Of a stretch of 52,773 nucleotides of DNA, positions 13,701 through 32,094 are shown piece after piece; the stretch's first letter is position 1, and each line of letters opens with the position of its first letter. Under the pieces are notes generated by a model that was not told where the DNA came from, made no database searches, and saw only the letters and a list, made by a program, of their open reading frames with translations. The translations under genes and the position numbers were made by a program. The stretch is from a virus (taxonomy: Duplodnaviria; Caudoviricetes), in the IMG/VR virus record IMGVR_UViG_3300044675_003531, positions 1-52,773 of that record; one strand, 5' to 3'.

Positions 13701-16700
13701 GGCGTACTCGTTACGGTATCGAAGCGGACGGGGCAATGATTGTCCCATCACTGTCTATCACTCTCAACGAACCGCTGGATTCTGTTGGATTGCGAACACT
13801 CGTGGACAGTGCGCCAGCCATATTCCAAGGTGCAACGCAATCGCCTGACAAGCGAACCCTGACAGTGTTCATGGTTCCAGATGCAAACATTGCAACAGCC
13901 GAGGCAAAGGACTGGACCAATCAAGCGACTACGTTGCTCAATGACTTTGTGCAAACGTACACAACGCCTGCGGATTCCTATTCCGACGATATGCTTGCGC
14001 GGTTGTCTATGGAGGTTGCTCCGGGTGAAGGTTCACCTGCGCACGCTCTGGTCGGCGATGCGTTCTATGAACTGTCTACTGAGAAGCAACATGATGTCAA
14101 TCGCAACTTGACTGAGACCGCTATTCGTGAGGTGGAAGCCATCATGGGTATCAGGTTGAAGTCCGTTGTGTTTGGGCTTGGTGGATGGCAGCACTACCAA
14201 AATGCATCAACTGTCTTGCAGGCAAACCTTACGCCGAAGCAAGCAGAGATTGCAGCGCATATGCTTGGATATACATTGCAGCAAACCGCAGTGTGGTCCA
14301 ATAAAATTAAACCGTTCAGTAAAGCATCATCTGCATATGCAGTGGACTTCATTGAGGTCGGAGGCAAAACTCTTGCCGATAGCGATAAACTTTCGCAAGT
14401 ATGGGCACGGTTGGTGGAAGCCGATGATACATCGACTGACCTTGACAATAAACTATTCCAAGGGTTCCAACCTATCCGTACCGCGACAGGTCAGGTAGGT
14501 ATCCGCGTCATCATCAAGTCTCCTGATGCAAACACAGGCGACCAAGTAGAGCGGTTATTGAATGGGCCAATCAAGAGTGCGGTCAAATCACTTGACATTG
14601 AATTGGACGTAGATGGTTATTCCTGCGACTTAGTGGAGGCAGAGAATGACTGGAAGGAACAACGGAATGGGGAATCTTACGTGGCGCGGTTGGGCGACCT
14701 CTTGGGACCAAGTGCGCAAAGCACCATCGCCAAACTCGATACTGCTCGGCAAAAACTTGAACAGCAACTCAAGTCGGCAATCGACACAACTGGGGTCAAA
14801 CCAAAAGCAATTGCCGCTGGTCGAAGAAGACTCTGGAATCTCGGAAGCGTCGAACTCGGAGCCAAAGGGCGATTCATCGAATATGAAACAGTACGAGATA
14901 TCGTTTCCAACGTCGCCCCGGATGATTCCTTACCGACGGCAGAAAAAGTAGCAAACACGGTCAACCAAGCACAACGTCGGGAGGTTGAGGAAGCGTTGTC
15001 GGTCGTGGCTGGTCAACGTATCAATCTTCCGAAACGGGTGCGGTTCAAGCGTACGCCAGAACACTCCATCTTCCAGATGCACGTTGGGCGGCATTATGAA
15101 AATATGCCTAAGAATGCACTGAAGTCAGACCCATATGTCAAGGTGGCATATGAGGCGTTGGTCAGTGAACTGGATATGCAGTATCGGTCGTTGAACCTGT
15201 CGGTAGACTTCATGCAGCCTGTCCTTGACCGTGACGGAAAGCCAGCAGTTGACGCATCGGGCGACCCGATGTACATAGACCCTTACACCAACGCTGAAGG
15301 CAAACTTGACTCAACACTGGCCATCCGTGATGTCCGTGAGAATCGTCACCTCTACGTGTATCCAACAACGGAAGGAACCGTTGGTGATGCTGGGGACAAG
15401 GCTGACTTTGATTATCTTGCCAAGAATCACCCTCTGTTTCAACAGAGCGGATTCAAAACCAAGACCGGGCAGCCGATGATGTGGAACGACGTGTTACGTG
15501 CTGTTCACGATGCGTTGGCTCACGGCATCTATGGTTCATCGTTCAATGAGAATGGTGAAGAGAATGCGTTCGTTGCACACGCAATCCTGACGCAAAACCC
15601 ATGGGCAATCTGGGCATTGGCAACCGAAACCCGTATGCAAAACTCGTGGGTCCATTACGGACCGCACCGAGTACTTACGGATGGCTCGTTCGTAACAACC
15701 AAGCCAGATGGGTTTGCTTCCCAGAAAGTTGGACTGTCTTCACTGGAGTGCCTGTACACAGGATGCTCTACGGTAGACGACAGGCTGCGAGTATTCAGCC
15801 AAAAACTCCGGACTGACTTTGGTGGATACAACGGAACAATCTCGTACCTGTCTGGACAAACTGGTGCAACTGTTCCGAACATGGGTTCACAGACAGGCGC
15901 AGTTCAATCCGAGATGAAGCGCAAACTGTACATCATGCGTGGGCTACCCGGAAGTGGGAAGTCTACCAAGGCCAGAGAACTTGCTGGCAACCTTGGTCAG
16001 ATTTTCTCTACCGACGAGTACTTCATGCAGGATGGCAAGTATCAGTTTGATGCGAGTCGCCTGCCTGAATACCATCGACGCAACCTTGATGATTCCACGA
16101 TGGCTATGCGTCGCGGTACGGGTGTGGTCGTTATCGACAACACGAACATCGAACCATGGCACTTTGAAAAGTATTTGGAATCGGGACGGCTTTACGGATA
16201 TCAGGTTGAGTTCGTCGAGTTCGACCCGACTAACTATTCGGACGCAAAAATTAAGGAACTGGCATCACGCAACACGCATCAAGTTCCAGAATCCGCAATC
16301 CGCTCAATGCGCGATAAGTGGGTGAAGATAGATGCGAAGAAGTATCGTGACGCTAAGACTATGGCGATGACCGGAACAGACCTGCCTACAGCGATGTCGT
16401 TTGGTCCAACGCTTCTCCATAATGCTGACGCTAAAGAAGCAACCATCGACCTCAAGAACGGAACGGTTGAAGGAAACATCACCCCTCAAGTAATTGATGA
16501 GGCTGGCAACCAGTCCACATTCATTCCGAACCCGAATGGCACTCAAGAAGATATCAACAAGGGTATCTACGAAGAGCCAGACAGTCCGAACTTGATGGCG
16601 CAGACCGGGCGTATCGCTGAAGCCGCACGTCGTGGAGCAGCCGCTGCTGTATCTGCAATGCGTCCTGCACCGGTAACATCGCCAACGACATCGACTCGGA

Positions 16701-19203: not shown

Positions 19204-20025
19204 TTATTCTCCTCTCACACGGCGCAGGGCGGCGATAGCACCCTCCGTGATGTCCATGACCGCTTCCTGTGCAGTCGGCTTGGTTGTCGCTGTTCCTGTG
19301 GTGGCCGCGCTCCAGTGGTTCCACAGGCTGTTCATCGTAACCATCTCACGCTTGGCCCATTTGCGTATCAGGTTCTCTGTTGACTGTCGCACTTGGTCCG
19401 GCGTGATGTCTGCATGAGACATCTGGTAGGCGATGTGCTTGACTCGGTTCCACTCTCCCAGTGTGAACTCTGATGCAATGAGTTCAGGGTAGGCCGTCAC
19501 ACGGTAGGCCTCGAATATCAACCGTCCCGCATCATCAGGTCCGGGAAGTGCGGACTTCTTTATACTCTTAGTTCCTTGTGATTCTCGTTCCTTATGATTC
19601 TTGTTAATAGGGGTATCGTTTTTGATACCCTCCACCCTACTAGATTTGATACCCTCCCCCGTATCACTTTTGAAACCCTCCGCATCCGGAAACAGGATGT
19701 ATCCGTTGGATGTCTGCCGCCCAGATGCATCGTGTCGGACCTTCTTGGCGAGGACCTTGGAACCGGAAATGGTTATGTTGCACAGGCTCTCAATCGACCG
19801 TCGCACCGTTGCTTCCGAGAGGCCGGTAGTGGCCACCAACTTGCCCATACTGGGCCAGCAGAAGCCCGTGCTGTCCATGTGGAGGGCCAGCGTTGTGAAC
19901 ACCATCCAGTCGCTGGACCCGAACTCCTTCAGGTGCGGCATGATGGTGTGGTGAACCTGCACGAACGTATCAGCAGGCGTTGAATGCAACAGGGTCCGAG
20001 ACCCGCCATTGAATATAGAAATCAC
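19204..20025 (-). CDS. Phage replication initiator with N-terminal winged HTH (HTH_36-like)
   Basis: ALHMDSTGFCWPSMGKLVATTGLSEATVRRSIESL; repetitive central linker (EGFKSDT/EGIKSSR/EGIKNDT) encoded by iterons. Confidence 0.8.
   Translation of the reverse strand: MISIFNGGSRTLLHSTPADTFVQVHHTIMPHLKEFGSSDWMVFTTLALHMDSTGFCWPSMGKLVATTGLSEATVRRSIESLCNITISGSKVLAKKVRHDASGRQTSNGYILFPDAEGFKSDTGEGIKSSRVEGIKNDTPINKNHKERESQGTKSIKKSALPGPDDAGRLIFEAYRVTAYPELIASEFTLGEWNRVKHIAYQMSHADITPDQVRQSTENLIRKWAKREMVTMNSLWNHWSAATTGTATTKPTAQEAVMDITEGAIAALRRVRGE
19561..19681 (-). promoter_or_regulatory. Putative replication origin inside the initiator gene
   Basis: Three GGAGGGTWTCAAA iterons (19621-33, 19645-57, 19669-81; 24-bp period) followed by an A-rich tract, as in lambda O-gene origins. 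Confidence 0.65.
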
Positions 20026-20028
20026 GCG

Positions 20029-20628
20029 TCACTCTCCTCCTCGCGTTCTATGCGGACAGCCCTCACACAGGATGCAGTCCAGCCCGGTTGCCTCGACCTC
20101 CACCGAGTCTCCCGGGTTATTACTCTCGGCCTTCGCACGGGCCTTGGCGTAAGCCTCCAGCACCGTCTGGGCCTCGGCAGGCGTGATGCCCGCAGGAACC
20201 GTCACAGAGGCCGTAGAGCGGCTCTCACGGCCGGACAGGTGCTGTTGCAGGGTAGAGGCTGATGCCTCGTGTTCTATGGCCCATTGCAGCGCGTCCACTT
20301 GTTCATCCGGCGGCAGGCCAGCCACCGCACGGTGATGCGTCCAAGACAGGCCCTGTATCCGGTTGTGGACCGGAACGTGCTTGGATACCCAGACACAGTT
20401 GGCCAGCGTCTGATACGCCATGCCGGTCAGGTCCATCGCTTGGCTGTACTTCTCGCCGTAGGTTGCCTCGCCGTAGACCAGAGCATCCCCGATGGCGAAC
20501 TGGACCGCCGTGTCGAGGGTGGATAGGGTCTGCACGAGGTTCAGCCATGCGTCGTAGGCAAGCGGCCCTGTGAAGGTCAGCCCGACCGAGGTCAGGCTGA
20601 CGTTAGGGGTTGCTAGGATGTCACTCAC
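20029..20628 (-). CDS. LmbU-like DNA-binding protein
   Basis: QFAIGDALVYGEATYGEKYSQAMDLTGMAYQTLANCVWVS...RIQGLSWTHHRAVA signature. Confidence 0.7.
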   Translation of the reverse strand: MSDILATPNVSLTSVGLTFTGPLAYDAWLNLVQTLSTLDTAVQFAIGDALVYGEATYGEKYSQAMDLTGMAYQTLANCVWVSKHVPVHNRIQGLSWTHHRAVAGLPPDEQVDALQWAIEHEASASTLQQHLSGRESRSTASVTVPAGITPAEAQTVLEAYAKARAKAESNNPGDSVEVEATGLDCILCEGCPHRTRGGE

Positions 20629-21214
20629 TGCTGGACACCGTCGTAACCTTCACAGAGTTCCGCCCGGGTTCGATGGTGAAGCCCCACGGAGTGTTGGACT
20701 CGCCGAACTCGTTGCTCGCCCACCGTTCGATGAACGTCTCTGGAAGTTTAGATACCAGCACCGACTCGACGGTCTTGACCGACTCGGGTGCGTTCAACTT
20801 GGCCCACGCCACGGCAAGTTGTTGGTTGTCAACAACTACCTTGGGCTTGACCTCACGGAACGCGACCTGTCCCCACGGGCAGGTGTAGGTCTTGGTCCGG
20901 AACGTGCCATCCGGCTTGCGTGGAAGCAGGCCCTCGGCCACGTCGCTGGCACTCCGTTCGTAGCGTGCCTTGAGCCACTCCACGCGGCGGTTCTTCAGGG
21001 CCAGCATCTTCTCCACGTTCGCGACAACAGCCTGCAACCGCTTGGTCTCGGCCAGCACGTCAGCCTCGGCACTGCTCAAACGGTTGAGGTAGGCCAGCAG
21101 TTCCTCCTCTGTCTCCAGAGCGCGGTCCGGCAAGGTGCTGTTGGCTGGACCGGCATACTCGCCGGTCTCTGTGTCGAACAGGTCATCCCCGATACGTTCA
21201 ATTGGCATTGCCAT
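20621..21214 (-). CDS. Mu Gam-like / Gp157-like DNA end-protecting protein
   Basis: Coiled coil followed by KTYTCPWGQVAFRE; adjacent to the annealase; GGAGAAGGAG RBS before the ATG at 21214. Confidence 0.6.
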   Translation of the reverse strand: MAMPIERIGDDLFDTETGEYAGPANSTLPDRALETEEELLAYLNRLSSAEADVLAETKRLQAVVANVEKMLALKNRRVEWLKARYERSASDVAEGLLPRKPDGTFRTKTYTCPWGQVAFREVKPKVVVDNQQLAVAWAKLNAPESVKTVESVLVSKLPETFIERWASNEFGESNTPWGFTIEPGRNSVKVTTVSSSE

Positions 21215-21824
21215 TCTCCTTCTCCAACTGTTGCAGGACGGCCTCGTACTCACTTGCAGGCACGTCGTACAGGGCCTTGGTGGCCTCTGTCAGATTCTCC
21301 ACCGTTCGCTCTGCGTTGTTGGTCAGCAGTGAGAACACCTCCTTGATGCGGGCACTGTCAGCATCCGGTTCGTGATGCTTGACCGCCGCACCAAACGCAA
21401 CGCCGGACCCCTTGATGTCAAGGACCTGCGGGCGTGGTGGGGTGGCACGCTTGAGTTCCACCGGAGCATCCACGATGCGCGGGTTGGCCACGCCATCGAC
21501 GACCTCGTCGAATTCGGGAGCGAACTGGGTTCCGTAGCCCAAGATACCCAAGGCGCGACCGATGGCCCCGGTCTCAGCCTTCTCCAAGTAGTCTGCGAAC
21601 CCTTTCGCATCCTCCATCTTGGTGCCTTCAGCAACGACCCTGCCTGTCGCATCGGTGATGGTTGCCTTGACGACGGCATACCTCTTCTCGATGCTGTGTT
21701 CGACAATCTGCGTGCTGATACCCCAGTCTGGATGTTCCTGTCGGAACCAGACCAGCCGCCACTTAACCTCGAGGTAGTCCTTACCCTTGAGGCTCATGAG
21801 TTTTTCGTTCGGATTGAACGCCAT
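21198..21824 (-). CDS. Single-strand annealing protein (Rad52/Sak-like)
   Basis: KGKDYLEVKWRLVWFR...VKATI...EKAETGAIGRALGILGYG motifs. Confidence 0.7.
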   Translation of the reverse strand: MAFNPNEKLMSLKGKDYLEVKWRLVWFRQEHPDWGISTQIVEHSIEKRYAVVKATITDATGRVVAEGTKMEDAKGFADYLEKAETGAIGRALGILGYGTQFAPEFDEVVDGVANPRIVDAPVELKRATPPRPQVLDIKGSGVAFGAAVKHHEPDADSARIKEVFSLLTNNAERTVENLTEATKALYDVPASEYEAVLQQLEKENGNAN

Positions 21825-21873
21825 ATCGATTCTCCTTCAAACGGTATGACCCAGCCCTTGCGGGCCGGGTCGT

Positions 21874-21884
21874 CCAGTGTATCA
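21874..21884 (-). promoter_or_regulatory. Extended -10 promoter (TGATACACTGG)
   Basis: TGn-TACACT; the same motif recurs at 24269, 25951 and 28139; followed by a 5'-UTR hairpin and RBS. Confidence 0.55.
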
Positions 21885-22586
21885 CTCGCTACTAAGTCTC
21901 GCGAGGAAGTCCTCCTCTGCGTCCTGTCGGTGCGCAGGGTTCATGTCTACGATGCCCATCAGCGGGCAGAGTTTCCGGTCCACGTACAGGACGGGATACT
22001 CCGCAGCCAGCCGCAGGATGCAGTGCGCCTCAATGATGCAGTCGCCGACCAGCCGCTCGACATCGTGCCCGAGTTCCAGTAGGTCCTCAATCACCCCGTT
22101 GATGCTGCTGCCAGCAACCGGGACCGTGAGGTCGGTGTTGGGGATAGGCCGCTCGATGATGCCTGTGTCTGGGTCACGGGCGATGTAGAGCCATCCGTTG
22201 CGGACAGGTGCAGGCAGGCCGTTCGGAAACGCTAGTGCGTTCGTTGGGCTATGCGTTGAACACTCGAGTGCGACGACCTTGTTGCCGTTGTAGCGGATGC
22301 ACCGCCACGACTCAATCAGTTCGTAGACAGAGATGCCTTCGATGTTCAGGTCGTTGAGGTCCACCGCCGTGTCCAGTTTCCCGGATTCTTTCATGCGCTG
22401 GATGTCAGCGCGGAACCCCTCCGGACTGTCTGCCACGATGATGTAGACCCACGGGCCGACACGCTCGGTGATGCATCCGCCCGGGCTGTTCTTCGGCTTG
22501 CCGATGTAGACCTTGTCGGTGGCCGACTGGCTGAACACATAGTCCCAGCAGTCCACTTCGAGTTCAGGTACGTTGATTGATGCCAT
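21882..22586 (-). CDS. Hypothetical protein
   Basis: 234-aa ORF in a tightly packed operon; GGAGG RBS. Confidence 0.6.
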   Translation of the reverse strand: MASINVPELEVDCWDYVFSQSATDKVYIGKPKNSPGGCITERVGPWVYIIVADSPEGFRADIQRMKESGKLDTAVDLNDLNIEGISVYELIESWRCIRYNGNKVVALECSTHSPTNALAFPNGLPAPVRNGWLYIARDPDTGIIERPIPNTDLTVPVAGSSINGVIEDLLELGHDVERLVGDCIIEAHCILRLAAEYPVLYVDRKLCPLMGIVDMNPAHRQDAEEDFLARLSSE

Positions 22587-22980
22587 GCCAAACCTCCATC
22601 TGTTGCAGAACTTTGTCGATGCGGTCCACTCGGCTCTGCCTCCCGAGTGTCGCCTCCGCTCGCCGAACCTCGTGCAGTGCCTCTGCCACCGTTCGGACGA
22701 TAGTTGTGATGTGTGCGTCGGCCAGCGACTGCTGGACCGGGGTGACCGCCGTCTTAGGTCCCTTGAGTTCGAGGCCCACGGCCATGCCGAACCAGTCAGG
22801 GTGATGGACGTAGATGTCCGGCAGGCCGGGAGTGTTGCCCTGCCATCCGGTGGCGTACGTCTTGGCCCCGCAGGCTCGGCAGGTGACCTTGCTCCTACTC
22901 TTCCCGCTCTCCATCGCTACATAGCCAAGGGAAGCGATGGCGGTTGTTATCGCCTTCTGTAGTTCCGCCTCCGGTTTCAT
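22564..22980 (-). CDS. VRR-NUC (PD-(D/E)XK) nuclease
   Basis: EAELQKAI...PGLPDI...GLELKGPKTAVTPVQ, with a CxxC insert. Confidence 0.8.
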   Translation of the reverse strand: MKPEAELQKAITTAIASLGYVAMESGKSRSKVTCRACGAKTYATGWQGNTPGLPDIYVHHPDWFGMAVGLELKGPKTAVTPVQQSLADAHITTIVRTVAEALHEVRRAEATLGRQSRVDRIDKVLQQMEVWHGINQRT

Positions 22981-23597
22981 CCTTCGCAAGGACGTGCCTC
23001 ATCACCAGTATCACCGCCAACAACAGGCTCACGAACCCCGCCAGCCTTCGCACGTTTTGCTTCACCGTGTACCTCCCGCCATAAGTATTTCGAGATGTAT
23101 GACGGCCATCCCGTGCCGGATTGTTGGACCGCTCGGGACCATTGCGAGAACGTAGAAGACCGCAGGCACAGGCTGAACAGCCTGCTGTGCAGTAGGTCGG
23201 TGTATGCCAGCCGATAGGCAGGCAGGGCATCCTGCGACACGTCAGGCAGGCGGGCCTCCGAGAGTTCGGCCTGCGTGTGCGTCCGTCGGTACAAGTACTT
23301 GGTCAGTGCGCCGTCCTCCCATTCCGCGTGCATCATAACGATGCGGGGCATGGTGCCGTTCATGATTGTGCAGATGGCTCCCGGGCCACGGCGATGCGCC
23401 CGGCTTAGGTAGTACATCACCTGCGTGACACGGGCGGTTCCGATGCCTCGGACCACGAGGTCCTTGGCTGCTGCCATCGCGGAGTCCAGCGCAGCATCCG
23501 CACCGGAACGGTCAGGAGACCAGACGCTGTGCGTCCGGCCTCCCATGGTTGTCTCCGTCTGCCATACACGGCTAAGGCCGCCGCTGTAGCCCTTCAC
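22977..23597 (-). CDS. Hypothetical protein
   Basis: 206-aa ORF with 4-bp overlaps with both neighbours. Confidence 0.55.
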   Translation of the reverse strand: MKGYSGGLSRVWQTETTMGGRTHSVWSPDRSGADAALDSAMAAAKDLVVRGIGTARVTQVMYYLSRAHRRGPGAICTIMNGTMPRIVMMHAEWEDGALTKYLYRRTHTQAELSEARLPDVSQDALPAYRLAYTDLLHSRLFSLCLRSSTFSQWSRAVQQSGTGWPSYISKYLWREVHGEAKRAKAGGVREPVVGGDTGDEARPCEG

Positions 23598-23839
23598 AGG
23601 CCGAGTTCCCGCAGGTGCTGGGACACAACCCTGTAGTTGCGGTCGCCTTCCCGGGTTTCGATGTCAGCGCGGATGGCCTTCTTCTGGTCAGCCCACGCCT
23701 GCTCTTCAGCCACCAGCCTCTTGCGGAGCGCGTTGACTTCGTTCTTCTGCATCACGCCGATGGTGAAGAATGCGATACCGGCGAGGCATATGATGATGCC
23801 TATTTGTGCGTCTGGGTTGTTGATGAATTTCTTAAGCAT
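23594..23839 (-). CDS. Small membrane-anchored protein
   Basis: IGIIICLAGIAFFTIGVM transmembrane segment followed by a coiled coil. Confidence 0.55.
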   Translation of the reverse strand: MLKKFINNPDAQIGIIICLAGIAFFTIGVMQKNEVNALRKRLVAEEQAWADQKKAIRADIETREGDRNYRVVSQHLRELGL

Positions 23840-24251
23840 TTTCGTGTTCCTTGTCTCTCCACGAGTCCAGTGAAATGTCAGCCTCTGGCTCCTCTGAAAC
23901 ATCCTCGCTGACGGCCGCCTCAATCCTTGCGATGAACGATGGGATGTCCACCGCCCCTGTGTGGAACGCGTCGTAGGTTCCTTCCCAGAGCGTCTCCGTC
24001 AGGATAGCCTCGGTATTGTCCTCCGCCCATGACGGGGAGAACGGGTCGCCCGAGTTGTTGTGGAGCCGTTCGACCTTGGCGGTGAAGGTTGCCCGGCCGT
24101 ACTGGACCCGGGCGGTAAACGTCACCCGCAACCGTGAGCCGTTGCAGACGCAGTGGGCATGGCGCGTGGCTTCGGTGAGCGTGGTGAACCGGACGATGCT
24201 GGATGCGACCGCCGCCGAGTTGGCGATGTCGCAGATGTCATTTACTTGCAT
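23832..24251 (-). CDS. Hypothetical protein
   Basis: GAGGAG RBS; lies downstream of the promoter motif. Confidence 0.6.
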   Translation of the reverse strand: MQVNDICDIANSAAVASSIVRFTTLTEATRHAHCVCNGSRLRVTFTARVQYGRATFTAKVERLHNNSGDPFSPSWAEDNTEAILTETLWEGTYDAFHTGAVDIPSFIARIEAAVSEDVSEEPEADISLDSWRDKEHENA

Positions 24252-24268
24252 GATGTCAAACTCCTCTG

Positions 24269-24282
24269 TGGCCCAGTGTATC
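24269..24282 (-). promoter_or_regulatory. Promoter motif GATACACTGGGCCA
   Basis: Repeated -10-like element. Confidence 0.5.
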
Positions 24283-24305
24283 GCACTGGCACGGTGTGGC
24301 CCAGC

Positions 24306-24695
24306 CTATCGGCCGGGGATTGGTTTCAAAGTAACCGAGGAACCTTGCTCGGTCCGTCCGTCTGAAATGTTTACAGAGCAGAAATTTCCGGGGTGATTGT
24401 CGGACACGTCAAAGATGCGGACGGTGTGCTTGCCAACCGTGTAGGTGTGGAAGTGTGAATCAAAGCGGTCCGTCCCGATGAACGTAACATTCTCGGACTT
24501 GGTGAGGTCGAGGCCGACGAGGTCCGCGCCTTGGCGCAGGTAGTGCAGCCGGTATGCCTTGCGGGCGATACGGGAGGCCGTAGCGGCCACGTTGCGGCCC
24601 GCTGGGGTCATAGGTGTCTGCGGTTCGGACTTCAGCCAACCGTACTGGGACGTGCTGTTGTAGCGGATAACAACGCCAATGGTTCTGAATTTCAT
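24306..24695 (-). CDS. Hypothetical early protein
   Basis: GGAGA RBS before the ATG at 24695. Confidence 0.6.
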   Translation of the reverse strand: MKFRTIGVVIRYNSTSQYGWLKSEPQTPMTPAGRNVAATASRIARKAYRLHYLRQGADLVGLDLTKSENVTFIGTDRFDSHFHTYTVGKHTVRIFDVSDNHPGNFCSVNISDGRTEQGSSVTLKPIPGR

Positions 24696-24754
24696 AGGTA
24701 TCTCCGTGAGGGTAAAAGTGTCCCGGTGTTTCGCCCCGCCGGGAAGGCACGGGG

Positions 24755-25156
24755 TCACAGGATGCGGGTCAGGGACCGGCAACCGACAACGTTCCCAGCG
24801 TCGTCCCGGATAAGGTCCCCGGGAACCAGCACATCCATCCGGCCCCGGATGCTGGGGTGGCTGGCCACCACGCTGGACACGATGTAGGCGACCTGCCCGC
24901 TGTGTGACTGGGCGGTTTCAGGCAGGGTGCATTCCTCTGTCTGTCGGACCCACTCGCCATCCTTGGACAGGATGCCGTCTGTCACAACGCGCTCGGCCTT
25001 GGAGCCGACCACGAGGACGTGCTGGCCGCAGACGAACAGGGACCCCACCGGCTCGGAAGCGGTGCGGACCCGGGCGATGCCGACGCTCGGGATGACGATG
25101 TCGGACGGGCCGATGATGGTGATGCTGTGAGGGGTCAGGTTGATAAGTGTTGTCAT
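24755..25156 (-). CDS. Conserved phage hypothetical protein (NLTPH...YIVS...RDDAGNVVGC family)
   Basis: Recognisable motif set of a widespread uncharacterised phage family; AAGGAG RBS. Confidence 0.7.
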   Translation of the reverse strand: MTTLINLTPHSITIIGPSDIVIPSVGIARVRTASEPVGSLFVCGQHVLVVGSKAERVVTDGILSKDGEWVRQTEECTLPETAQSHSGQVAYIVSSVVASHPSIRGRMDVLVPGDLIRDDAGNVVGCRSLTRIL

Positions 25157-25200
25157 GTTCATACTCCTTGAATAGCCGCAGGGCGGCAGTGTGTGACGGT

Positions 25201-25395
25201 TCAGCGGGCTTGTTCGTAACCGTCGAACCAGCGGCCCAGACGCTTGGTGCGGGCCTTACCTGCGGCCTTGGTGCAGGTGCTGGAAGATGTCTCCGGGTCA
25301 GAGCAGTGGGCCTTGGCCTGCTCGAGGGTCAGCCCGGTGGCGATGGTGCGGCGGCGGATGTTGGCCGACTCGTAGAAGCGGATGATGTGATACAT
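25201..25395 (-). CDS. Small conserved phage protein (GLTLEQAKAHCSDPETSS...WFDGY)
   Basis: Motif recalled from small phage early proteins; GGAGA RBS. Confidence 0.7.
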   Translation of the reverse strand: MYHIIRFYESANIRRRTIATGLTLEQAKAHCSDPETSSSTCTKAAGKARTKRLGRWFDGYEQAR

Positions 25396-25448
25396 GGTGA
25401 AATCTCCAAAGTGTCTGGCCCGGGCGGTGAACCCGGGCCGGGGTGATG

Positions 25449-25886
25449 TCAAACCTCGATGTCGTACTTGCGGCCAGCGTCCGCGACAGCCTTTTGCCAT
25501 ATCGGCTCGAACCACGCCTCAAGGCCCGTCCGGTCAGCCTCGGTGTCGGTGCGTGTGGACCAGTCAGATACCACGTCCGGGCCATCGTTCCCGTACACGA
25601 GGGATAGGGTCAGGAAGGTCATCGCGGTCCTGCCCTCCGGGTTGTCTACGGTTGCGAATGTCTCGGCCGGGAAGGAGAACATCAAATCCTGCACCTCAGT
25701 GTCGTGCATCCGGGCCTTGACCTCGTACCAGTCAGCCACCTTGCGGAACGAGTCCTCTTCGTCGCGGAGGGAAATCTTTGCGCGCTTGGCAAGTGCGGCG
25801 TATACAATCTGCCGCACCACAAAGTGTTCGGCGCGGACGCGGGTCTGGATGTCTGGGTGAAGGCCCAGAAGTTCGGAAGATGTCAT
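25449..25886 (-). CDS. Hypothetical early protein (LVYGNDGPDVVSDW motif)
   Basis: GGAGAC RBS; the motif recurs in small phage proteins. Confidence 0.65.
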   Translation of the reverse strand: MTSSELLGLHPDIQTRVRAEHFVVRQIVYAALAKRAKISLRDEEDSFRKVADWYEVKARMHDTEVQDLMFSFPAETFATVDNPEGRTAMTFLTLSLVYGNDGPDVVSDWSTRTDTEADRTGLEAWFEPIWQKAVADAGRKYDIEV

Positions 25887-25950
25887 GGTGTAAGTCTCCG
25901 GCCCGTCAGGGCTGGGGGTCAGTGCCCCGGCCGTGAGGCCGAGGCGGGAG

Positions 25951-25971
25951 CAACGATGGCCCAGTGTATCA
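25951..25971 (-). promoter_or_regulatory. Extended -10 promoter TGATACACTGGGCCATCGTTG
   Basis: Near-identical to 28139-28159. Confidence 0.6.
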
Positions 25972-26391
25972 CGACCGGGCGGGGCTATCAGGTGCCTCAA
26001 GCATCCCGTACCAGCCATCTGGGTCCAGAGCGGCCTGCACGGCGGCGACGTGTCCCTCGGCTACCATCCGGGCGTGCGCCCCCCAGTGTGGAGCGGACAG
26101 GACCGCGAGGGCATATGGCATCGTGTCGGCCGCGTACCATTGGCGGGCCAGCGCGTCGTAGTGTTCGACGACATCCTCCTGCACGGGGTCCAGCACGCCG
26201 TCGGGGATATCGCACGGAGCGTCAAACTCGGTCAGTTCGTCGTTCTGGCATACCAGCGTCTTGGGGCCGATGGCCACAACGATGCGGTCGGGCTTGGTCG
26301 TCGTGAGTATGAGCCACACGTCGTAGTTGGTTGTGAGGGCGGCCATGCGTTCGGCCTGTGCGACGTAGGGGGTGCGGCGGGTTATCCACAT
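25969..26391 (-). CDS. Hypothetical early protein
   Basis: AAGGAGAC RBS before the ATG at 26391. Confidence 0.6.
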   Translation of the reverse strand: MWITRRTPYVAQAERMAALTTNYDVWLILTTTKPDRIVVAIGPKTLVCQNDELTEFDAPCDIPDGVLDPVQEDVVEHYDALARQWYAADTMPYALAVLSAPHWGAHARMVAEGHVAAVQAALDPDGWYGMLEAPDSPARS

Positions 26392-26447
26392 GATGGTTGT
26401 CTCCTTGGGGGTCAGTGCCCCCGGGGTGTCCGGGGGCTGGGGGGGTG

Positions 26448-26783
26448 TCAGAGTGCGGCGGCCTTGACGCGGATGTCGAGGCGGGCGGATGTCAGGAACG
26501 GCGGCAGGCCGGACGTTCCGGCGGCGAACCCGCGAGTGGTCCGCGCCCAGTTGTTCAGATACTCCCACGCCGCGAACTCGGACCGCACCGCGAGGTACCG
26601 GCGGGCACCGCTTGCGCGGTTCAGGGTCAGGGCGTAGCGGCCATCCGGCAGGGCGGCGGCCTCGGCCCATGTCCACTCGTTGCGGCGGGTGTGGAACACG
26701 GCCACGCCGATGCGATGCTGGCCAGCGGCCGTGAAGGACTCGTCTGTCTGGAACAGCCGGGCGGGCTTGCGGTAGGTTGTCAT
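26448..26783 (-). CDS. Hypothetical early protein
   Basis: AAGGAGAC RBS. Confidence 0.65.
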   Translation of the reverse strand: MTTYRKPARLFQTDESFTAAGQHRIGVAVFHTRRNEWTWAEAAALPDGRYALTLNRASGARRYLAVRSEFAAWEYLNNWARTTRGFAAGTSGLPPFLTSARLDIRVKAAAL

Positions 26784-26918
26784 GTCAGGTGTCTCCTTGG
26801 GGCGTTGCCCCGGGGTATGTGGCCCGCGTTCGGTCGGGCCGTTCGTGATGCAGCAGCACGGGGCTGCGGGGCTGCGGGGCGGGGAACTGGCATCGCCAGC
26901 CCCCAGTGCAGGCCGGGG

Positions 26919-28076
26919 TCAGGCCGCCTCTTGGGCGACCTCCTCCCACTTTGTCGGGCGGCTGAAGAATCCGAACCCGGGTTCCTTGGGTTCAACCGTG
27001 GCGGTGAACCGGACCGGGGTGCCAGCCTCGGGTGCAACCGCCGAACTTGGCAGGGAACCGTACAGGCGGAACCCGTCGCATTGCACCAGCACCTTGGTCG
27101 TCCAGCCCCACTGGGTCTCGATGGACTTCGTGTTCAGGACCTGCCCGGTGATGGCACGGCGGCCATCCTGCGGGGTGACCAGCGGCGCGTCGGTCTTGGG
27201 GGCCGAGGTGGCCTTGCGCCATGCCCCGACAAAGTAGGCCACGCCCCGGCGGTCCAGCCAGCCATCGGCCTCCCAGCGTTCCATGATGCCCGGGGCATCG
27301 GCCATGGCCTCGCGGATGCTGGCCAGCACGGACCAGTCAGCGGCAGGCAGGGCCGACTCCAGCAGTTGGTCCGCGACCTTGGCCGCCTCCCAGACGATGC
27401 GCCATGTGGCGTTGGAGTTGGGGTTGCCATCGGGACCCTTGCTGGCCACGTAGGGCTGGCCATCCATCGATGCCAGCGCACGCAGGACCGTTTCGAGGCG
27501 GACCCACTTTGGCTCGTACCATCCGCCGCCGCCGCACTCGTCAGGGTCCCCGGTGCGGGACATGATGGCCGTTGCCTCGGCGAGGCTGGCCAGCGCAGAG
27601 CGCAGGGCGTTGGGGACATACTTGGCAACGCACGCGCCGCCGACTTGCAGGGCGTTGCCCATGCGGTCCCCGAGTATGACCGTGGTGTAGCGGGTGCGGT
27701 TCAAGCCGCAGGACTCGCAGGCGGTGTGGGTGTCCGGGAGCATGGCCATGATGGCGGCGGCCTCTGCGGCCGTGGTGCTAGGGCGGACCCACGACACCAA
27801 GGTGGCCTCGCGCTCGCCGAGGTACCGCCACCCAGCGGTCAGGTCGATGTCGGGTATGCCGACGGTGACGGGGACCACGGCCACGGTCCAGCGGGCGACG
27901 GGGACCTGCTCGAACCGGCCGCGTGCGCCCTCCTGCATCTCATAACGGGTGACGCGCAGGGGTTGCTCTTCACCGACGGTGATGGTCAGGCCGGGGATGC
28001 CTGCGGCGGCGCGGCGGAGCAGGGCCTGCACGCGGGTCAAGTTGTCGGGGGTGACTTTGTAGGTTGTCTCGGTCAT
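26919..28076 (-). CDS. Zn-binding (CESC...QVGGAC) plus C-terminal OB-fold-like protein
   Basis: Cys cluster; C-terminal beta-rich GRRAITGQVL...QWG...GTPVRFTATV...FSRPTK. Confidence 0.65.
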   Translation of the reverse strand: MTETTYKVTPDNLTRVQALLRRAAAGIPGLTITVGEEQPLRVTRYEMQEGARGRFEQVPVARWTVAVVPVTVGIPDIDLTAGWRYLGEREATLVSWVRPSTTAAEAAAIMAMLPDTHTACESCGLNRTRYTTVILGDRMGNALQVGGACVAKYVPNALRSALASLAEATAIMSRTGDPDECGGGGWYEPKWVRLETVLRALASMDGQPYVASKGPDGNPNSNATWRIVWEAAKVADQLLESALPAADWSVLASIREAMADAPGIMERWEADGWLDRRGVAYFVGAWRKATSAPKTDAPLVTPQDGRRAITGQVLNTKSIETQWGWTTKVLVQCDGFRLYGSLPSSAVAPEAGTPVRFTATVEPKEPGFGFFSRPTKWEEVAQEAA

Positions 28077-28138
28077 GGTCAGTGTCTCGGGGCTTGCGGC
28101 CCGGGGGGTCAGTGCCCCAGCAGAGCCGGGGCGTGGTG

Positions 28139-28159
28139 CAACGATGGCCCAGTCTACCA
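28139..28159 (-). promoter_or_regulatory. Extended -10 promoter TGGTAGACTGGGCCATCGTTG
   Basis: TGn-TAGACT with a shared downstream sequence. Confidence 0.6.
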
Positions 28160-28190
28160 TCAGGCGGACCGGGCTGGCCAGTTCGGCGGG

Positions 28191-28436
28191 TCAGACTTGC
28201 TCTGGGTCCCAGACCTCGCGGCATCCGGGGTTCGCACATCGGAGTTCGCCGGTTTGATGCCCGTCGGTTCCGACGGCGTGCGGCACTGGGCCGTCGCAAG
28301 CGCAGAACGGGCAGGGCCAGCCCCAGATGCGCTGGGAGGCGGTGCGGCGGCTCTTGGGTGCGGAGTGGGCCGCGACGCAGGCGGCGGTGTAGGTGCGATA
28401 GGTGCGGCCGGTGGCCGAACGGCGGGTTTCAAGCAT
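28191..28436 (-). CDS. Small zinc-finger protein
   Basis: CPFC...CANPGC; GAGGAG RBS. Confidence 0.6.
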   Translation of the reverse strand: MLETRRSATGRTYRTYTAACVAAHSAPKSRRTASQRIWGWPCPFCACDGPVPHAVGTDGHQTGELRCANPGCREVWDPEQV

Positions 28437-28492
28437 GAGAATTCTCCTCGGGAAGAAAGGCCCCGGCGGGCGGCCGGGGCAGGGTCAGCGGG

Positions 28493-29023
28493 TCAGAACT
28501 TGCGGCGGGCCGAGAAGCCCAGCGATGCGCCGCGATACTTGGGAGCCAGCGCGGTGTCGGTCAGCCCCGGCGGCAGGACGGGCCGCTGTTCGAGTTCGCC
28601 GGTCAGCGACATGGCCCCGACATCGTGGCGGTAGCCATCGCGGTACCGGGGGGCCAGCCGAACGGTCAGCCGATACTCGAGTTGGACCCCGTCAGGGGTG
28701 GCCGAGGTCCACTCCAACTGCCAGTGGATGGACCGGAGCGGGAGGGTGCTGGTTTCGATGGGCCCGTCGCCGGATGCGACGCTGGCGGCGGCCTTGGCGG
28801 TCATGTCGTCGATGCTCTCGGGTTGCGCCCAGATGACTCCGGAGTATCCGGCCCGCTTGGGTGTCACGCCCTCCGGCAGGGCGACCGTCGCGAAGAAGTG
28901 CCGGGCCTCGGTCATGGCCAGCAGGATGCGCTCTGGGGTCAGCAGGCGGCGCAGAACGGTCAGAGCGGACGCAGGTGCGGCCACGCCGCCAAACTTGCTA
29001 TCGTGGGTGTCGATGTCGAACAT
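28493..29023 (-). CDS. Hypothetical early protein
   Basis: GGAGAC RBS within the repeat element. Confidence 0.65.
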   Translation of the reverse strand: MFDIDTHDSKFGGVAAPASALTVLRRLLTPERILLAMTEARHFFATVALPEGVTPKRAGYSGVIWAQPESIDDMTAKAAASVASGDGPIETSTLPLRSIHWQLEWTSATPDGVQLEYRLTVRLAPRYRDGYRHDVGAMSLTGELEQRPVLPPGLTDTALAPKYRGASLGFSARRKF

Positions 29024-29119
29024 AGTGGGTTGTCTCCAGCCCGGTCAGGGGCGGGGGTCAGTGCCCCGGCAGGACCGGGGCGGGGGCGGCGGGAACTGGC
29101 ATCGGCCAGCGGGCGGGGC

Positions 29120-29452
29120 CTACTCGGCCACGATGTCGTCAAGCAGGACCGTGTCGGTCCCGCCGTCAGGGTTGGTGGCAGCCCGGGGGGCGACCAGAGC
29201 ATCGGCAATGCCACGGGCCACGGTGGACCGGACCAGCGGATGCAGCCGGTATCCCTCGAGAATGGCCTGCCCGTGGTACCGGGAACCGTCAAGGGCCGAG
29301 ATGGCCACGCGGCCGAACCGGCCATCAAGGGGGCCGTGCGGGTCCCGCAGGTTCTGATTGACGGCCTTGGTCACGAGGCCAGCAACGCGGGAGGCATCAG
29401 GGGTGCGGCCGGTCAGGTCGCCCCGGTCGTTGTGAACATAGAACATCGGCAT
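29120..29452 (-). CDS. Hypothetical early protein
   Basis: GGAGAC RBS before the ATG at 29452. Confidence 0.6.
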   Translation of the reverse strand: MPMFYVHNDRGDLTGRTPDASRVAGLVTKAVNQNLRDPHGPLDGRFGRVAISALDGSRYHGQAILEGYRLHPLVRSTVARGIADALVAPRAATNPDGGTDTVLLDDIVAE

Positions 29453-29525
29453 GGTGCGTGTCTCCAGCCCCCGGCGGGGGCGGTGGGGTAGGTGCCCGGG
29501 GCTGGCCGGGCGGGGTTGACTGATA

Positions 29526-29590
29526 GGGCTTGCCATCATCAGATGCTGGGGGGCCACCCCAGACACGACCCCCGGGCGGGGGTTTCGGCA
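29526..29590 (-). ncRNA. Type II hammerhead ribozyme (HH1)
   Basis: UGCC-GAAA-CCCCC(GCCC)GGGGG-UC^GUGUCUGGGG(UGGCC)CCCCAGCAU-CUGAUGA-U-GGCA-AGCCC; predicted cleavage between 29567 and 29566. Confidence 0.85.
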
Positions 29591-29592
29591 GG

Positions 29593-29823
29593 TCAGCGAT
29601 AGAAGCGGGTCAGGGCCTCGGTCGTGGCCTTGGAACTGGCATCGGCCCGGGTGGAGAGTTCGGAGCCGATGTAGGTCAGGACCCAGACGGTCGCGACCAG
29701 CGAACCGTACCAGCCCCAGTGCCCCTTGACGTGGAGCAGGATGCTGACCGTGGTGAGCAGGTGAACGATGGCCACCGTCAGGGCGGCGTGCAGAGTGTTG
29801 TCGGAAATACGGGTGATGCGCAT
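29593..29823 (-). CDS. Small two-TM membrane protein
   Basis: Two hydrophobic helices; repeat element upstream. Confidence 0.6.
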   Translation of the reverse strand: MRITRISDNTLHAALTVAIVHLLTTVSILLHVKGHWGWYGSLVATVWVLTYIGSELSTRADASSKATTEALTRFYR

Positions 29824-29901
29824 GGCAGATGTCTCGGGGCCGGATGGCCCGGGGTCAGTGCCCCGGGGTGAACCGGGGCGGGAGGGGCGAGGTGCGGCAG
29901 G

Positions 29902-30219
29902 TCAGGCCTGCGGGGTGGAGGTGTCCACGATGGCCCAGCCCTCGGCGGCGGCCGCGTCGAATGAGCGGACGGCTGCCACCACGGTGCGATACAGGGCGCG
30001 GGGGTGGAGTTGGACCGCCGAGAGGGTGATGGCGGCGAGGTCCTGCCCGCCGTGGCGGAGGGTCAGCGTCACCGGCGGGAGGGCCGGGCCGGTCCAGCGG
30101 ACGGTGGAGGAGCGCAAGACCTGATTGACGCGGAACGCAACCGCGCTCGGCAAGTTTTGGGTGACATAGGATGTTGCGCCGTCGAAGGACGCGATGCGGA
30201 CGGTGAACGGGTTCAGCAT
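29902..30219 (-). CDS. Hypothetical early protein
   Basis: GGAGACTCCGCATC-ATG start. Confidence 0.6.
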   Translation of the reverse strand: MLNPFTVRIASFDGATSYVTQNLPSAVAFRVNQVLRSSTVRWTGPALPPVTLTLRHGGQDLAAITLSAVQLHPRALYRTVVAAVRSFDAAAAEGWAIVDTSTPQA

Positions 30220-30289
30220 GATGCGGAGTCTCCGGCCCCAGAGGGGCGGGGGGTCAGTGCCCGGGGCTGGCCGGGCGGGTGGACTGATA

Positions 30290-30356
30290 GGGCTTGCCAT
30301 CGTCAGGCATCAAGGAGCCACCTTGACACGACCCCGGGGCGGCCGGGGTTTCGGCA
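30290..30356 (-). ncRNA. Type II hammerhead ribozyme (HH2)
   Basis: UGCC-GAAA-CCCCGG(CCGCC)CCGGGG-UC^GUGUCAAGG(UGGCU)CCUUGAUGC-CUGACGA-U-GGCA-AGCC; loop I GGCU can pair with the 3' AGCC; predicted cleavage between 30330 and 30329. Confidence 0.9.
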
Positions 30357-30372
30357 GGTCAGCGGGTGCGGC

Positions 30373-30714
30373 CTACTTGTTGGCCCAGAGGGTGGCCAGC
30401 AGGGCGCGGACGACACGGTCAGGGTCAGGGCTGGCCATCAGGGTGTCGGTGTCGATGTCCACCGTGCCAAGGAGGGTGGCACCCTGCCAGAGGCTAATGG
30501 ATGTCGCGGTGCCCGGGATGGGCTCGGCACCGTAGCGCAGGATGTTGGTCAGGCGGGTGATGGTCCGGAGGCCAACCCGGCTGAAGATGTCAGCCAGACC
30601 GGGCCGGGCGGTCAGCCAGACTTCGTAGCCTTGCGGGAGGTGGCGGCGGTTGGACCAAGTCCAGCGGCCGGTGGATGCTTCGAGGTGTGCGAATTCGCGG
30701 GTCAGGTTTTGCAT
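30373..30714 (-). CDS. Hypothetical early protein
   Basis: GGAGACTCCGCATC-ATG start, identical to that of the next gene. Confidence 0.6.
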   Translation of the reverse strand: MQNLTREFAHLEASTGRWTWSNRRHLPQGYEVWLTARPGLADIFSRVGLRTITRLTNILRYGAEPIPGTATSISLWQGATLLGTVDIDTDTLMASPDPDRVVRALLATLWANK

Positions 30715-30781
30715 GATGCGGAGTCTCCAGAGGGGGATGGCCCGGGGTGAACCGGGCCGGGGTTGTCGATGCGGGGAGGGC

Positions 30782-30994
30782 TTAGAAGTCGCCGCCAGCC
30801 GAGATGACCCGCTCACCGGGGGCGGCGATGGTGTAGAGGGTTGTCGGTACACCGTAGGTGGCGAGGTAGTCTCGCTCAGCACGGGCCTTGACTACCTCGG
30901 CGGTCGCCCTATTGTGGCACTTGACGACGACCAGCGGGTAGCCGCTTGGCGAGAGGACTGCAACGGCGTAGGTTGGAAGGGTGATGGTTGACAT
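30782..30994 (-). CDS. Hypothetical protein (first gene of the leftward unit)
   Basis: GAGAC-type RBS before the ATG at 30994. Confidence 0.55.
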   Translation of the reverse strand: MSTITLPTYAVAVLSPSGYPLVVVKCHNRATAEVVKARAERDYLATYGVPTTLYTIAAPGERVISAGGDF

Positions 30995-31029
30995 GGTTGT
31001 CGGTTGTCTCAGGGCACGAGGGCCCGGGG

Positions 31030-31395
31030 TCAGGGCCAGTGGACTAGACTGGCAGGGTGTAGGTTTCGCGGTGCTATCCGCCGGGGCCGGGTCAGGGCTC
31101 ATCAGGTGGCCAGCATCAGGCCACGACATGGTTTCCAGCAGGTCCCGTGGAGGTGTTGATATCACCTATCTGCTGGTACACCCCGCCACACGGTGGAGGG
31201 TGTCTCTTATGGTGCGGGTCGTTGCATCGATTGAGGGGGGCCGAACGGCCAAGGTGCCCGGGATGGGCTAGGGAGAGGATGCTACCGCGTCTAGGATAAA
31301 GTGCCGAACCTGCCGGACCCGCGAGGGGTCCCAACCGCGACCCAGTGGACTTGGCCACCGGACACAGGAACACTCTACTCGGACCTGGTGGCCCA
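31030..31395 (-). ncRNA. Large structured leader RNA containing a hammerhead-like core (HH3)
   Basis: GUC^GUGGCC(UGAUGCU)GGCCAC-CUGAUGA-GC...GCGG(AUAGCA)CCGC-GAAAC at 31127-31063, plus several additional helices. Confidence 0.5.
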
Positions 31396-31401
31396 GTGCA
31401 A

Positions 31402-31880
31402 GCATAGTTGTTGACACTCATTGACACTCATTGACAGTTATTCACACTTGAGTGCGCTGTTGATAGTTATTGACACTCACATTTATTTTGTTTAGTGATG
31501 TGAAGTATTTCAGAGGGCTGTGGAACCGATGCGGGACCGGGGCGGCAGTGTCCGGGACCGATGGCAGGGCGGCAGGATGCAGAGGGGAGTTTTTGAGGCA
31601 TAGTAGGAATCGCACACGTCACACGCATGACGCGTCACACACACGCACGTACACACGGGCACACACGCGCACGCGTTGGGATAGAACGCACGCACACGTA
31701 CGAGCAGGCGCAACGCGCCTGCGAGTATGCGAGCGCGTAGCGCGAGCAGGCTCCGGGGCTGCCACCAAGCAGAGGTGACAAGAATACAAGGGGGCCGTTT
31801 CACACCAAGATGAGGTGACAGCGTCGCAGGGCTATGTTGCAACAAGTATCAACAAGTATCAACGAGTGTCAACAACTATC
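31402..31880. repeat. Inverted arrays of 10-bp repeats flanking an alternating purine-pyrimidine tract
   Basis: TTGACACTCA-type tandem repeats at 31411-31450 and 31470; inverted copies at 31841-31880; exact 16-bp inverted repeat at 31404-19 / 31864-79. Confidence 0.85.
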
Positions 31881-32094
31881 AGAACAGAGGGGCAGTTATT
31901 ACCCGTACGATAGCAACCCCGCTGTATGGGCCCTGTGTGGCCTCACAGCCCTACCCGTCAGAGTCAGCCCACGCCCGGCTGGGGACCCCCTTTTATAATA
32001 GGGAGAACAACTGTTTGAGGACTCCAAATCGCAGCGCACCAAGGCGAGGTGACACCCCATTGGCAAGCCCCCGCCACCCCAAGGCGAGGTGACA
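31765..32094 (+). repeat. Four CCAAGnnGAGGTGACA sites in two pairs, each pair 40 bp apart
   Basis: Copies start at 31765, 31805, 32039 and 32079. Confidence 0.85.

Follow-up and report, generated by a model that had tools for sequence, protein, structure and literature searches.

Among small ribozymes hammerheads have been studied the most, the core with its three helices is regarded as invariant, and search pipelines discard candidates with irregular stems next to that core. A leader at the head of a phage operon, in which the letters of a hammerhead core enclose two hairpins instead of one, therefore raises the question as to whether an element of this kind can be a ribozyme and, if it is, what it would do to the transcript that carries it. 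The leader lies in an uncultivated virus record of 52.8 kb with a completeness of about 85%, and by "the window" we mean the whole stretch of DNA analysed (52,773 nucleotides). An earlier note on this DNA had proposed a large structured leader with an atypical and possibly switchable hammerhead that gates the entire early operon. Of that interpretation, the hammerhead, its cut site, the insertion in stem II and the loop pairing stood up to comparison, whereas the switch and the operon gating did not, and the leader as a whole is not exceptionally stable. From sequence comparison, the minus-strand element 31133-31057 is probably a type III hammerhead of a phage-borne subfamily that has taken up an insertion and that would cut itself to process the operon transcript.

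The record contains ORFs for a terminase, portal protein, major head protein, endolysin and HTH repressors, together with a 5539-aa ORF, and near-identical DNA occurs in lake-water metagenome runs, with no RNA run among them. The 5539-aa ORF fills 1796-18415 on the plus strand as a single frame; its only matches are to a polynucleotide-kinase/ATPase-like stretch and to one PHROG without known function, all in the C-terminal third. The bulk of the window has a GC content of 44-54%, compared with 59-70% at 20-32 kb, and codon-position GC resolves the high-GC part into a single minus-strand gene chain running from ~30994 down to ~18450. Positions 31000-31400 therefore precede a leftward operon as its 5' leader, in line with the assumption of the earlier note. 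The operon opens with the following gene:

30782..30994, minus strand: operon gene 1, 70 aa; homologues start MSTITL

Nine homologues of the 70-aa protein were obtained, all of which begin MSTITL; one is truncated, and the eight full-length ones have 80-94% identity. Neither Pfam nor PHROG gave a match for the 70-aa protein. Two minus-strand ORFs that run through the leader (31116-31427 and 30782-31165) were rejected as coding because they lack third-position GC bias. The leader as a whole was likewise rejected as coding sequence: indels break its frame in the homologous leader described below, and the homologues of gene 1 all begin at ATG 30994.

The leader DNA was present in 0/21 related viral records (records found via the capsid protein), and five related phages gave no DNA match to approximately 21.7-33.1 kb of the window, matching only outside it; the module is therefore lineage-specific. 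Four near-complete related phages lack the module and carry no hammerheads. The stretch from ~20000 to 32000, with its elevated GC and without a counterpart at 21.7-33.1 kb in the five relatives, suggests a swapped-in early or replication module. There was no match to 30700-31900 by blastn against GenBank phages, no related locus in viral contigs via the 70-aa and 413-aa proteins, and no exact match in viral contigs for the 20-mer covering the second hairpin of the element and GAAAC.

The letters from which the earlier note had assembled its hammerhead (the GUC, stem I, CUGAUGA, the hairpin before GAAAC, and GAAAC itself) are all on the minus strand, at the positions given here:

31125..31127, minus strand: cleavage triplet GUC (G16.2, U16.1, C17), from the sequence; predicted cut C31125/G31124
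31106..31124, minus strand: stem I, GUGGCC (31124-31119) with GGCCAC (31111-31106), a perfect 6 bp, and loop UGAUGCU (31118-31112)
31099..31105, minus strand: core box CUGAUGA (C3-A9), from the sequence
31082..31098, minus strand: inserted hairpin hp1, GCC-CUGACCC-GGC (31098-31086), and linker CCCG (31085-31082), from folding of the stem II region
31068..31081, minus strand: stem II proper (hp2), GCGG-AUAGCA-CCGC; loop AGCA complementary to loop I UGCU
31061..31067, minus strand: core GAAA (G12-A15.1, 31067-31064) and 3' strand of stem III (C31063, C31062, U31061), from the sequence

We applied the hammerhead criteria in the Methods of PMC3088659. The consensus core (C3 U4 G5 A6 N7 G8 A9, G12 A13 A14, A15.1, U16.1, H17) is complete in the window, and the cleavage site that had been predicted at 31125/31124 is consistent with hammerhead numbering. 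Two of the core-adjacent pairs, N1.1-N2.1 (G31124-C31106) and A15.1-U16.1 (A31064-U31126), are present in the window and kept in 6/6 of the two-hairpin sequences introduced below. At the third, N10.1-N11.1, which would close a single stem II directly between A9 and G12, G31098 and C31068 are pairable, yet the predicted fold uses them as the end bases of two separate hairpins. Stem III consists of U-A (31126-31064), G-C (31127-31063), a U.C mismatch (31128/31062) and A-U (31129-31061). Between CUGAUGA and hp2 lie 17 nt (31098-31082), which confirms that stem II is interrupted by an insertion, and UGCU in loop I is complementary to AGCA in the loop of hp2 over a predicted contact of 4 bp.

Considered in isolation, the window motif is weak and not significant. 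Rfam Hammerhead_3 (RF00008) gives the element 17.4 bits, below the gathering score of 48.5, in a local match to model positions 6-49; the E-value is 1.6 when all Rfam families are run on 1.2 kb and 0.017 when this family alone is run on the 52.8-kb record. Nor is the leader exceptionally structured: over 431 nt its stability is about that of shuffles (z -0.82), and the 151-nt subdomain that reaches z -2.56 was picked post hoc. The motif stands above chance because of comparative evidence, which comes from a homologous leader, from a subfamily of phage-borne relatives and from other sequences with two hairpins.

The homologous leader, L084, is a metagenome contig with the 70-aa gene and 329 nt upstream of it; it was retrieved via a neighbouring protein, not via the motif, and is the sole full-length homologue of the window leader obtained. 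All 13 core positions are kept, with changes only at N7 (U to A, giving CUGAAGA) and at H17 (C to U, giving GUU, which is still N-U-H). Its stem I reads ACACUC/GAGUGU, and five of the six pairs differ from the window on both sides around the same loop UGAUGCU, while the block GCGG-AUAGCA-CCGC-GAAAC is identical. Stem III, which is AUGU/ACCU with the U.C mismatch in the window, has become UGGU/ACCA and is paired at 4/4 positions. L084 also has the insertion, as GCC-UUGACC-GGC with the linker CCCCCG, and selection on the core and stem I has therefore continued after the insertion took place. Contigs from four sequencing runs supplied further variants; these are short and local, and none spans the whole stretch. 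In the contig from run X24 the nine changes are confined to 31130-31167 and leave the ribozyme untouched. Compensatory changes at two stem pairs of AGGUG/CACCU account for four, and a fifth leads to G-U pairing on the minus strand only. In a variant contig from run X8 the loop of hp1 is altered and the linker is longer, with the GCC/GGC stem kept.

A wider set of relatives came from a pattern scan that combined loop I, CUGANGAG and CGAAAC, a pattern derived from the window, followed by a filter on stem I. Viral contigs yielded 27 pattern loci, of which 25 have 6/6 stem I pairs, and genome contigs yielded 19, of which four do. We judged two viral matches (L099 and L107) and 15 of the 19 genome matches to be false, as they have at most 4/6 stem I pairs. 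The resulting subfamily comprises 23 distinct sequences with sufficient flank, window and L084 included, plus L090, for which there is 1 nt upstream only. Ordinary type III hammerheads make up 18/23. On Rfam Hammerhead_3 such canonical members reach 30-42 bits, with E-values down to 1e-5, and they too stay below the gathering score of 48.5. For 16 canonical members, 93.3% of 240 pair cells are paired, 12/15 pairs are changed on both sides, and their pair score was reached by 0/500 shuffles. From these 16, with the window and L084 excluded, we built a covariance model (R1), which matches the window (42.7 bits) and L084 (41.0 bits) at full length, over model positions 1-60; the window score, like the core and stem I pairing of the members, is partly so by construction, the training set having been retrieved with a window-derived pattern. 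L088 and L096, in which MAFFT misplaced stem II, were kept out of the R1 alignment and served as held-out positives. The stem II loop AGCA, which is absent from the search pattern, occurs in 19/23 distinct members, and the UGCU/AGCA loop pairing proposed in the earlier note is accordingly a conserved hallmark of the subfamily. Together with the covariation in L084, this phage-borne group backs the assignment of the element as a hammerhead. Most relatives lie ~6-35 nt before the first downstream ATG; the window ribozyme is 68 nt from its start codon.

Two contigs carry more than one copy. On the viral contig L094, ~2521-4779, four hammerheads (two type III and two type II) fall within ~2.3 kb, and L096 has two type III copies. 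As far as sequence assignments go, L094 and L096 show some phage operons to be densely packed with putative ribozymes.

How unusual is the extra hairpin? Two hairpins between CUGANGA and GAAA occur in six distinct sequences from five lineages, namely the window, L084, L090, L092, L108 and L115 (=L125, a Spirochaetes MAG). The order is hp1 directly after A9, a linker of 4-6 nt, and then hp2, which ends directly before G12 and carries the AGCA loop. The six linkers are CCCG, CCCCCG, CCUG, CACG, CUUG and CGAG. The stems vary among lineages, in hp1 (GCC/GGC, GGGCA/UGCCC, GCGC/GCGC) as well as in hp2 (GCGG, GGCGG, GACCC, GACCA, GCCC), and in other lineages hp1 has GNRA or UUCG tetraloops. Unconstrained folding returns the four-helix layout for 5/6. 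Stems I and III, to which the pair count is limited because MAFFT misaligned hp1 and hp2 of the six (these are described from per-sequence folds), are paired in 59/60 cells, the sole exception being the U.C of the window. Stem I contributes 36/36 cells, four of the six sequences having been pre-filtered on this stem, and stem III is complete (4/4 pairs) in L084 and the other four sequences and 3/4 in the window.

Sister loci indicate which of the two hairpins is the newcomer. Comparison of the canonical L103 with L115 gives a clean 15-nt indel directly after CUGAUGA, and that of the canonical L096 with L092 a clean indel of ~11 nt at the same place. Both canonical sisters have one unpaired or bulged G between CUGAUGA and stem II, at the same position as the hairpin of the sister locus. 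The indels and the bulged G point to hp2 as the original stem II and to hp1 as an insert at the A9/G10.1 junction, a catalytic-metal site. Read in this way, the insertion in the window is 16 nt (GCC-CUGACCC-GGC and CCC) between A9 and the bulged G that precedes stem II. In the window lineage hp1 may derive from a local repeated hairpin. The minus-strand sequence GCCCUGACCC is found in the 5' strand and loop of hp1 (31089-31098) and again in the hairpin before the RBS (31027-31036), and GGCCC...GGGCC-like hairpins are also seen in other intergenic gaps, including 30739-30760. The literature searched gave no account of a hairpin placed between CUGANGA and stem II, although the supplementary alignments of PMC3088659 and PMC10085705 might contain such variants. 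The phrase "undescribed branched hammerhead" in the earlier note is a fair one for the two-hairpin layout.

The element is not the only hammerhead candidate in the operon, in which two gaps between genes hold matches to a second hammerhead family:

30287..30356, minus strand: type II hammerhead candidate in the gap between gene 2 and gene 3, Rfam Hammerhead_II 32.6 bits
29523..29590, minus strand: type II hammerhead candidate in the gap between gene 4 and gene 5, Rfam Hammerhead_II 33.3 bits

Both scores are below, and near, the Rfam Hammerhead_II gathering score of 37. The first candidate is a full-length match (1-66) with an E-value of 0.0024 in 15.5 kb (1.9e-6 per record), and L084 has a homologue of it at 33.5 bits; the second, also matched over its full length, has an E-value of 0.0016 in the 15.5-kb scan (1.3e-6 per record). 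Each candidate fills the gap from a stop codon to the next start codon, and along the minus strand the order is the type III variant, genes 1-2, a type II candidate, genes 3-4, a type II candidate, and gene 5 onward. In both type II candidates A9 of the core, with the two bases that open the 3' strand of stem II, makes up the start codon of the following gene (CUGA(C/U)GA-UGGCA), and the ORFs downstream of both begin MASPIS. Cleavage of a type II element and release of the 5' fragment could unmask this start codon. Perreault et al. 2011 (PMC3088659) describe multiple prophage hammerheads that flank genes or short gene blocks and take them as processing long transcripts. The earlier note had the leader element possibly gating the entire early operon; a context with two hammerheads between gene pairs suggests transcript processing instead.

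What the comparisons document is that the element descends from the family, that selection on the core and stem I went on once the insertion was there, that the layout recurs and that the context is rich in ribozymes. The most likely role of the element would be self-cleavage at 31125/31124, by which a polycistronic phage transcript is processed. In the fold that we propose, loop I (UGAUGCU) would pair with the AGCA loop on stem II, and the inserted hairpin would place four helices around the core, not three. The RNA would then cut itself between C31125 and G31124, shedding an upstream leader of at least 270 nt and leaving an mRNA with a 5'-OH end and the folded ribozyme body at its head. The type III variant and the two type II ribozymes would between them split the polycistronic transcript so that each unit holds about two genes.

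RiboJ-type synthetic insulators are a familiar point of reference, in which a hammerhead between promoter and RBS trims off a variable 5' leader and remains attached to the mRNA as its 5' hairpin. The window element is natural; it would resemble them in its position upstream of the RBS and in the predicted removal of the leader. A viroid hammerhead with one more nucleotide between A9 and G10.1 is known. Variants with single extra core nucleotides (PMC3088659) likewise have an insertion at a backbone position able to point away from the core; here it is a whole hairpin of 11-18 nt. The closest known systems are the phage and prophage type III hammerheads with a loop I/II pseudoknot (RF00008; Perreault et al. 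2011, PMC3088659). They have the same core and the same block order (cleavage site-stem I-CUGANGA-stem II-GAAA-stem III), a 4-bp contact in the style of UGCU/AGCA, a position just upstream of a gene and a tendency to cluster with other hammerheads; loop I/II pseudoknots and frequent weak stems III are reported there. The window differs from them in its added 16-nt hairpin and linker, which makes two hairpins instead of one, in a score below the Rfam gathering score and in an internally mismatched stem III. The non-circularly permuted hammerheads of types SGC and CSG (Eckert et al. 2023, PMC10085705) also combine a non-classic topology with a full set of core bases and come from metagenomic or viral-like sources. 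In contrast to these, the window keeps the classic type III order (S-C-G), and its novelty is an added helix, not a permutation.

It is possible, and we put it forward tentatively, that these sequences represent a natural four-helix hammerhead, in which a hairpin insertion at A9/G10.1 is tolerated by active ribozymes, or even selected, and has been acquired repeatedly by phages. The inserted hairpin might be a folding or docking module that tunes the timing of the leader cut, possibly together with an upstream mimic of stem II in this phage. If the four-helix reading is true, the core of a hammerhead can accommodate a large insertion at a site considered closed. A recurrent, selected variant with a hairpin beside CUGANGA would widen the accepted architecture, would expose members that current models miss (Rfam gives this one 17 bits) and would mark the insertion site as a natural spot for engineering ribozyme switches. 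The context would also offer a clean example for the unsolved role of phage hammerheads, with three ribozymes bounding two-gene blocks and a type II pair that overlaps start codons.

A weak stem III, a competing fold and the position of the insertion speak against robust cleavage by the window copy. For this copy the minimum free energy fold, which pairs CAU with the AUG of CUGAUGA, is 4.4 kcal/mol more stable than the hammerhead secondary structure, and with U.C at the third pair its stem III is the weakest of the 23 subfamily sequences. The same features, with the Rfam score of 17.4 bits, would fit a relic, descended from a canonical phage hammerhead, that lost cleavage through the hairpin insertion and weak stem III and persists only as 5'-UTR hairpins, for example protecting the mRNA end. 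At the A9/stem II junction, moreover, known alignments have 1-2 extra nucleotides at most (Eckert et al. 2023, PMC10085705). We nevertheless consider an inactivated relic unlikely. The window and L084 kept their cores after the insertion, with changes at N7 and H17 only and five stem I pairs compensated, and a like insertion with a 4-6 nt linker stands beside intact cores in five lineages, albeit among sequences retrieved by a core-containing pattern.

The preferred reading, a self-cleaving hammerhead that processes the transcript, has also to be set against a regulated one, which involves the rest of the leader:

31135..31176, minus strand: hairpin CCAGCAG...CUGCUGG with inner AGGUG-AUAUCAA-CACCU (31167-31151), covariation in L084
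31178..31203, minus strand: hairpin ACACCCU...GGGGUGU, predicted fold
31275..31289, minus strand: segment CGCGGUAGCAUCC, a possible competitor, complementary to the 3' half of hp2, with AGCAUC complementary to loop I
31021..31052, minus strand: two hairpins from the ribozyme to the start codon, CCAGU...ACUGG and GGCCC-UGACC-CCGGGCC, from RNAalifold

The inner stem AGGUG/CACCU of the first hairpin is GAGCG/CGCUC in L084 (three double changes) and GGGCG/CGCUC in the X24 contig (letters read by eye). The hairpin ACACCCU/GGGGUGU is kept in L084 with a one-sided change of U-G to C-G, and the two hairpins nearest the start codon have one A-U to U-A double change there. A switchable hammerhead could work in several ways: CGCGGUAGCAUCC (31289-31275) could capture hp2 and loop I, GGGGUGUA could alternate between upstream and downstream partners, or a factor could bind the inserted hairpin. 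Complementarities that the earlier note had listed do exist in the window: UGCU/AGCA, the upstream AGCAUC (31283-31278), the partners of GGGUGUA and CCAGCAG/CUGCUGG are all present. CGCGGUAGCAUCC is a mimic of hp2, copying its 5' half and loop; RNAalifold pairs the two, and the mimic is conserved in L084. GGGUGUA and UACACCC belong to a 12-nt inverted repeat that is 92% complementary (31188-31177 with 31061-31050), and the resulting 12-bp long-range helix could stand in for the weak stem III of the window. Comparison with relatives argues against both pairings. The 3' strand of the 12-bp helix (UACACCC) is replaced in L084 and in the X8 variant, and the 5' strand in L084 brings no compensation; with its downstream partner lost and the upstream hairpin kept, the proposed GGGUGUA switch finds no backing. 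The pairing of the mimic is without covariation, and the upstream AGCAUC, shared with L084, occurs outside the window lineage in 2/21 members having 300 nt upstream, which is about the chance rate and makes it no feature of the subfamily. The GNRA and UUCG tetraloops on hp1 in other lineages are structural, not sensor-like. A switch in the window lineage is therefore possible and unsupported, and as an account of the element we regard regulation as improbable.

A chance resemblance in a GC-rich non-coding leader, for which the E-value of 1.6 (all Rfam families, 1.2 kb) and a whole-leader stability no greater than that of shuffles would speak, is very unlikely given the covariation with L084, a subfamily with the same loops that includes canonical hammerheads of the validated type, and two further hammerheads in the same operon.

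Self-cleavage for transcript processing thus remains the reading that we prefer for the element. Repeats of other kinds occur close by in the window. Two arrays of TTGACAC-type repeats with a 10-bp periodicity lie at 31404-31480 (plus strand) and, inverted, at 31840-31880; in this inverted orientation they border a CA/CG-rich sequence of ~360 bp. Four copies of a 21-nt repeat are located at 31761, 31801, 32035 and 32075. The arrays and the 21-nt repeats could be operator, promoter or origin iterons.
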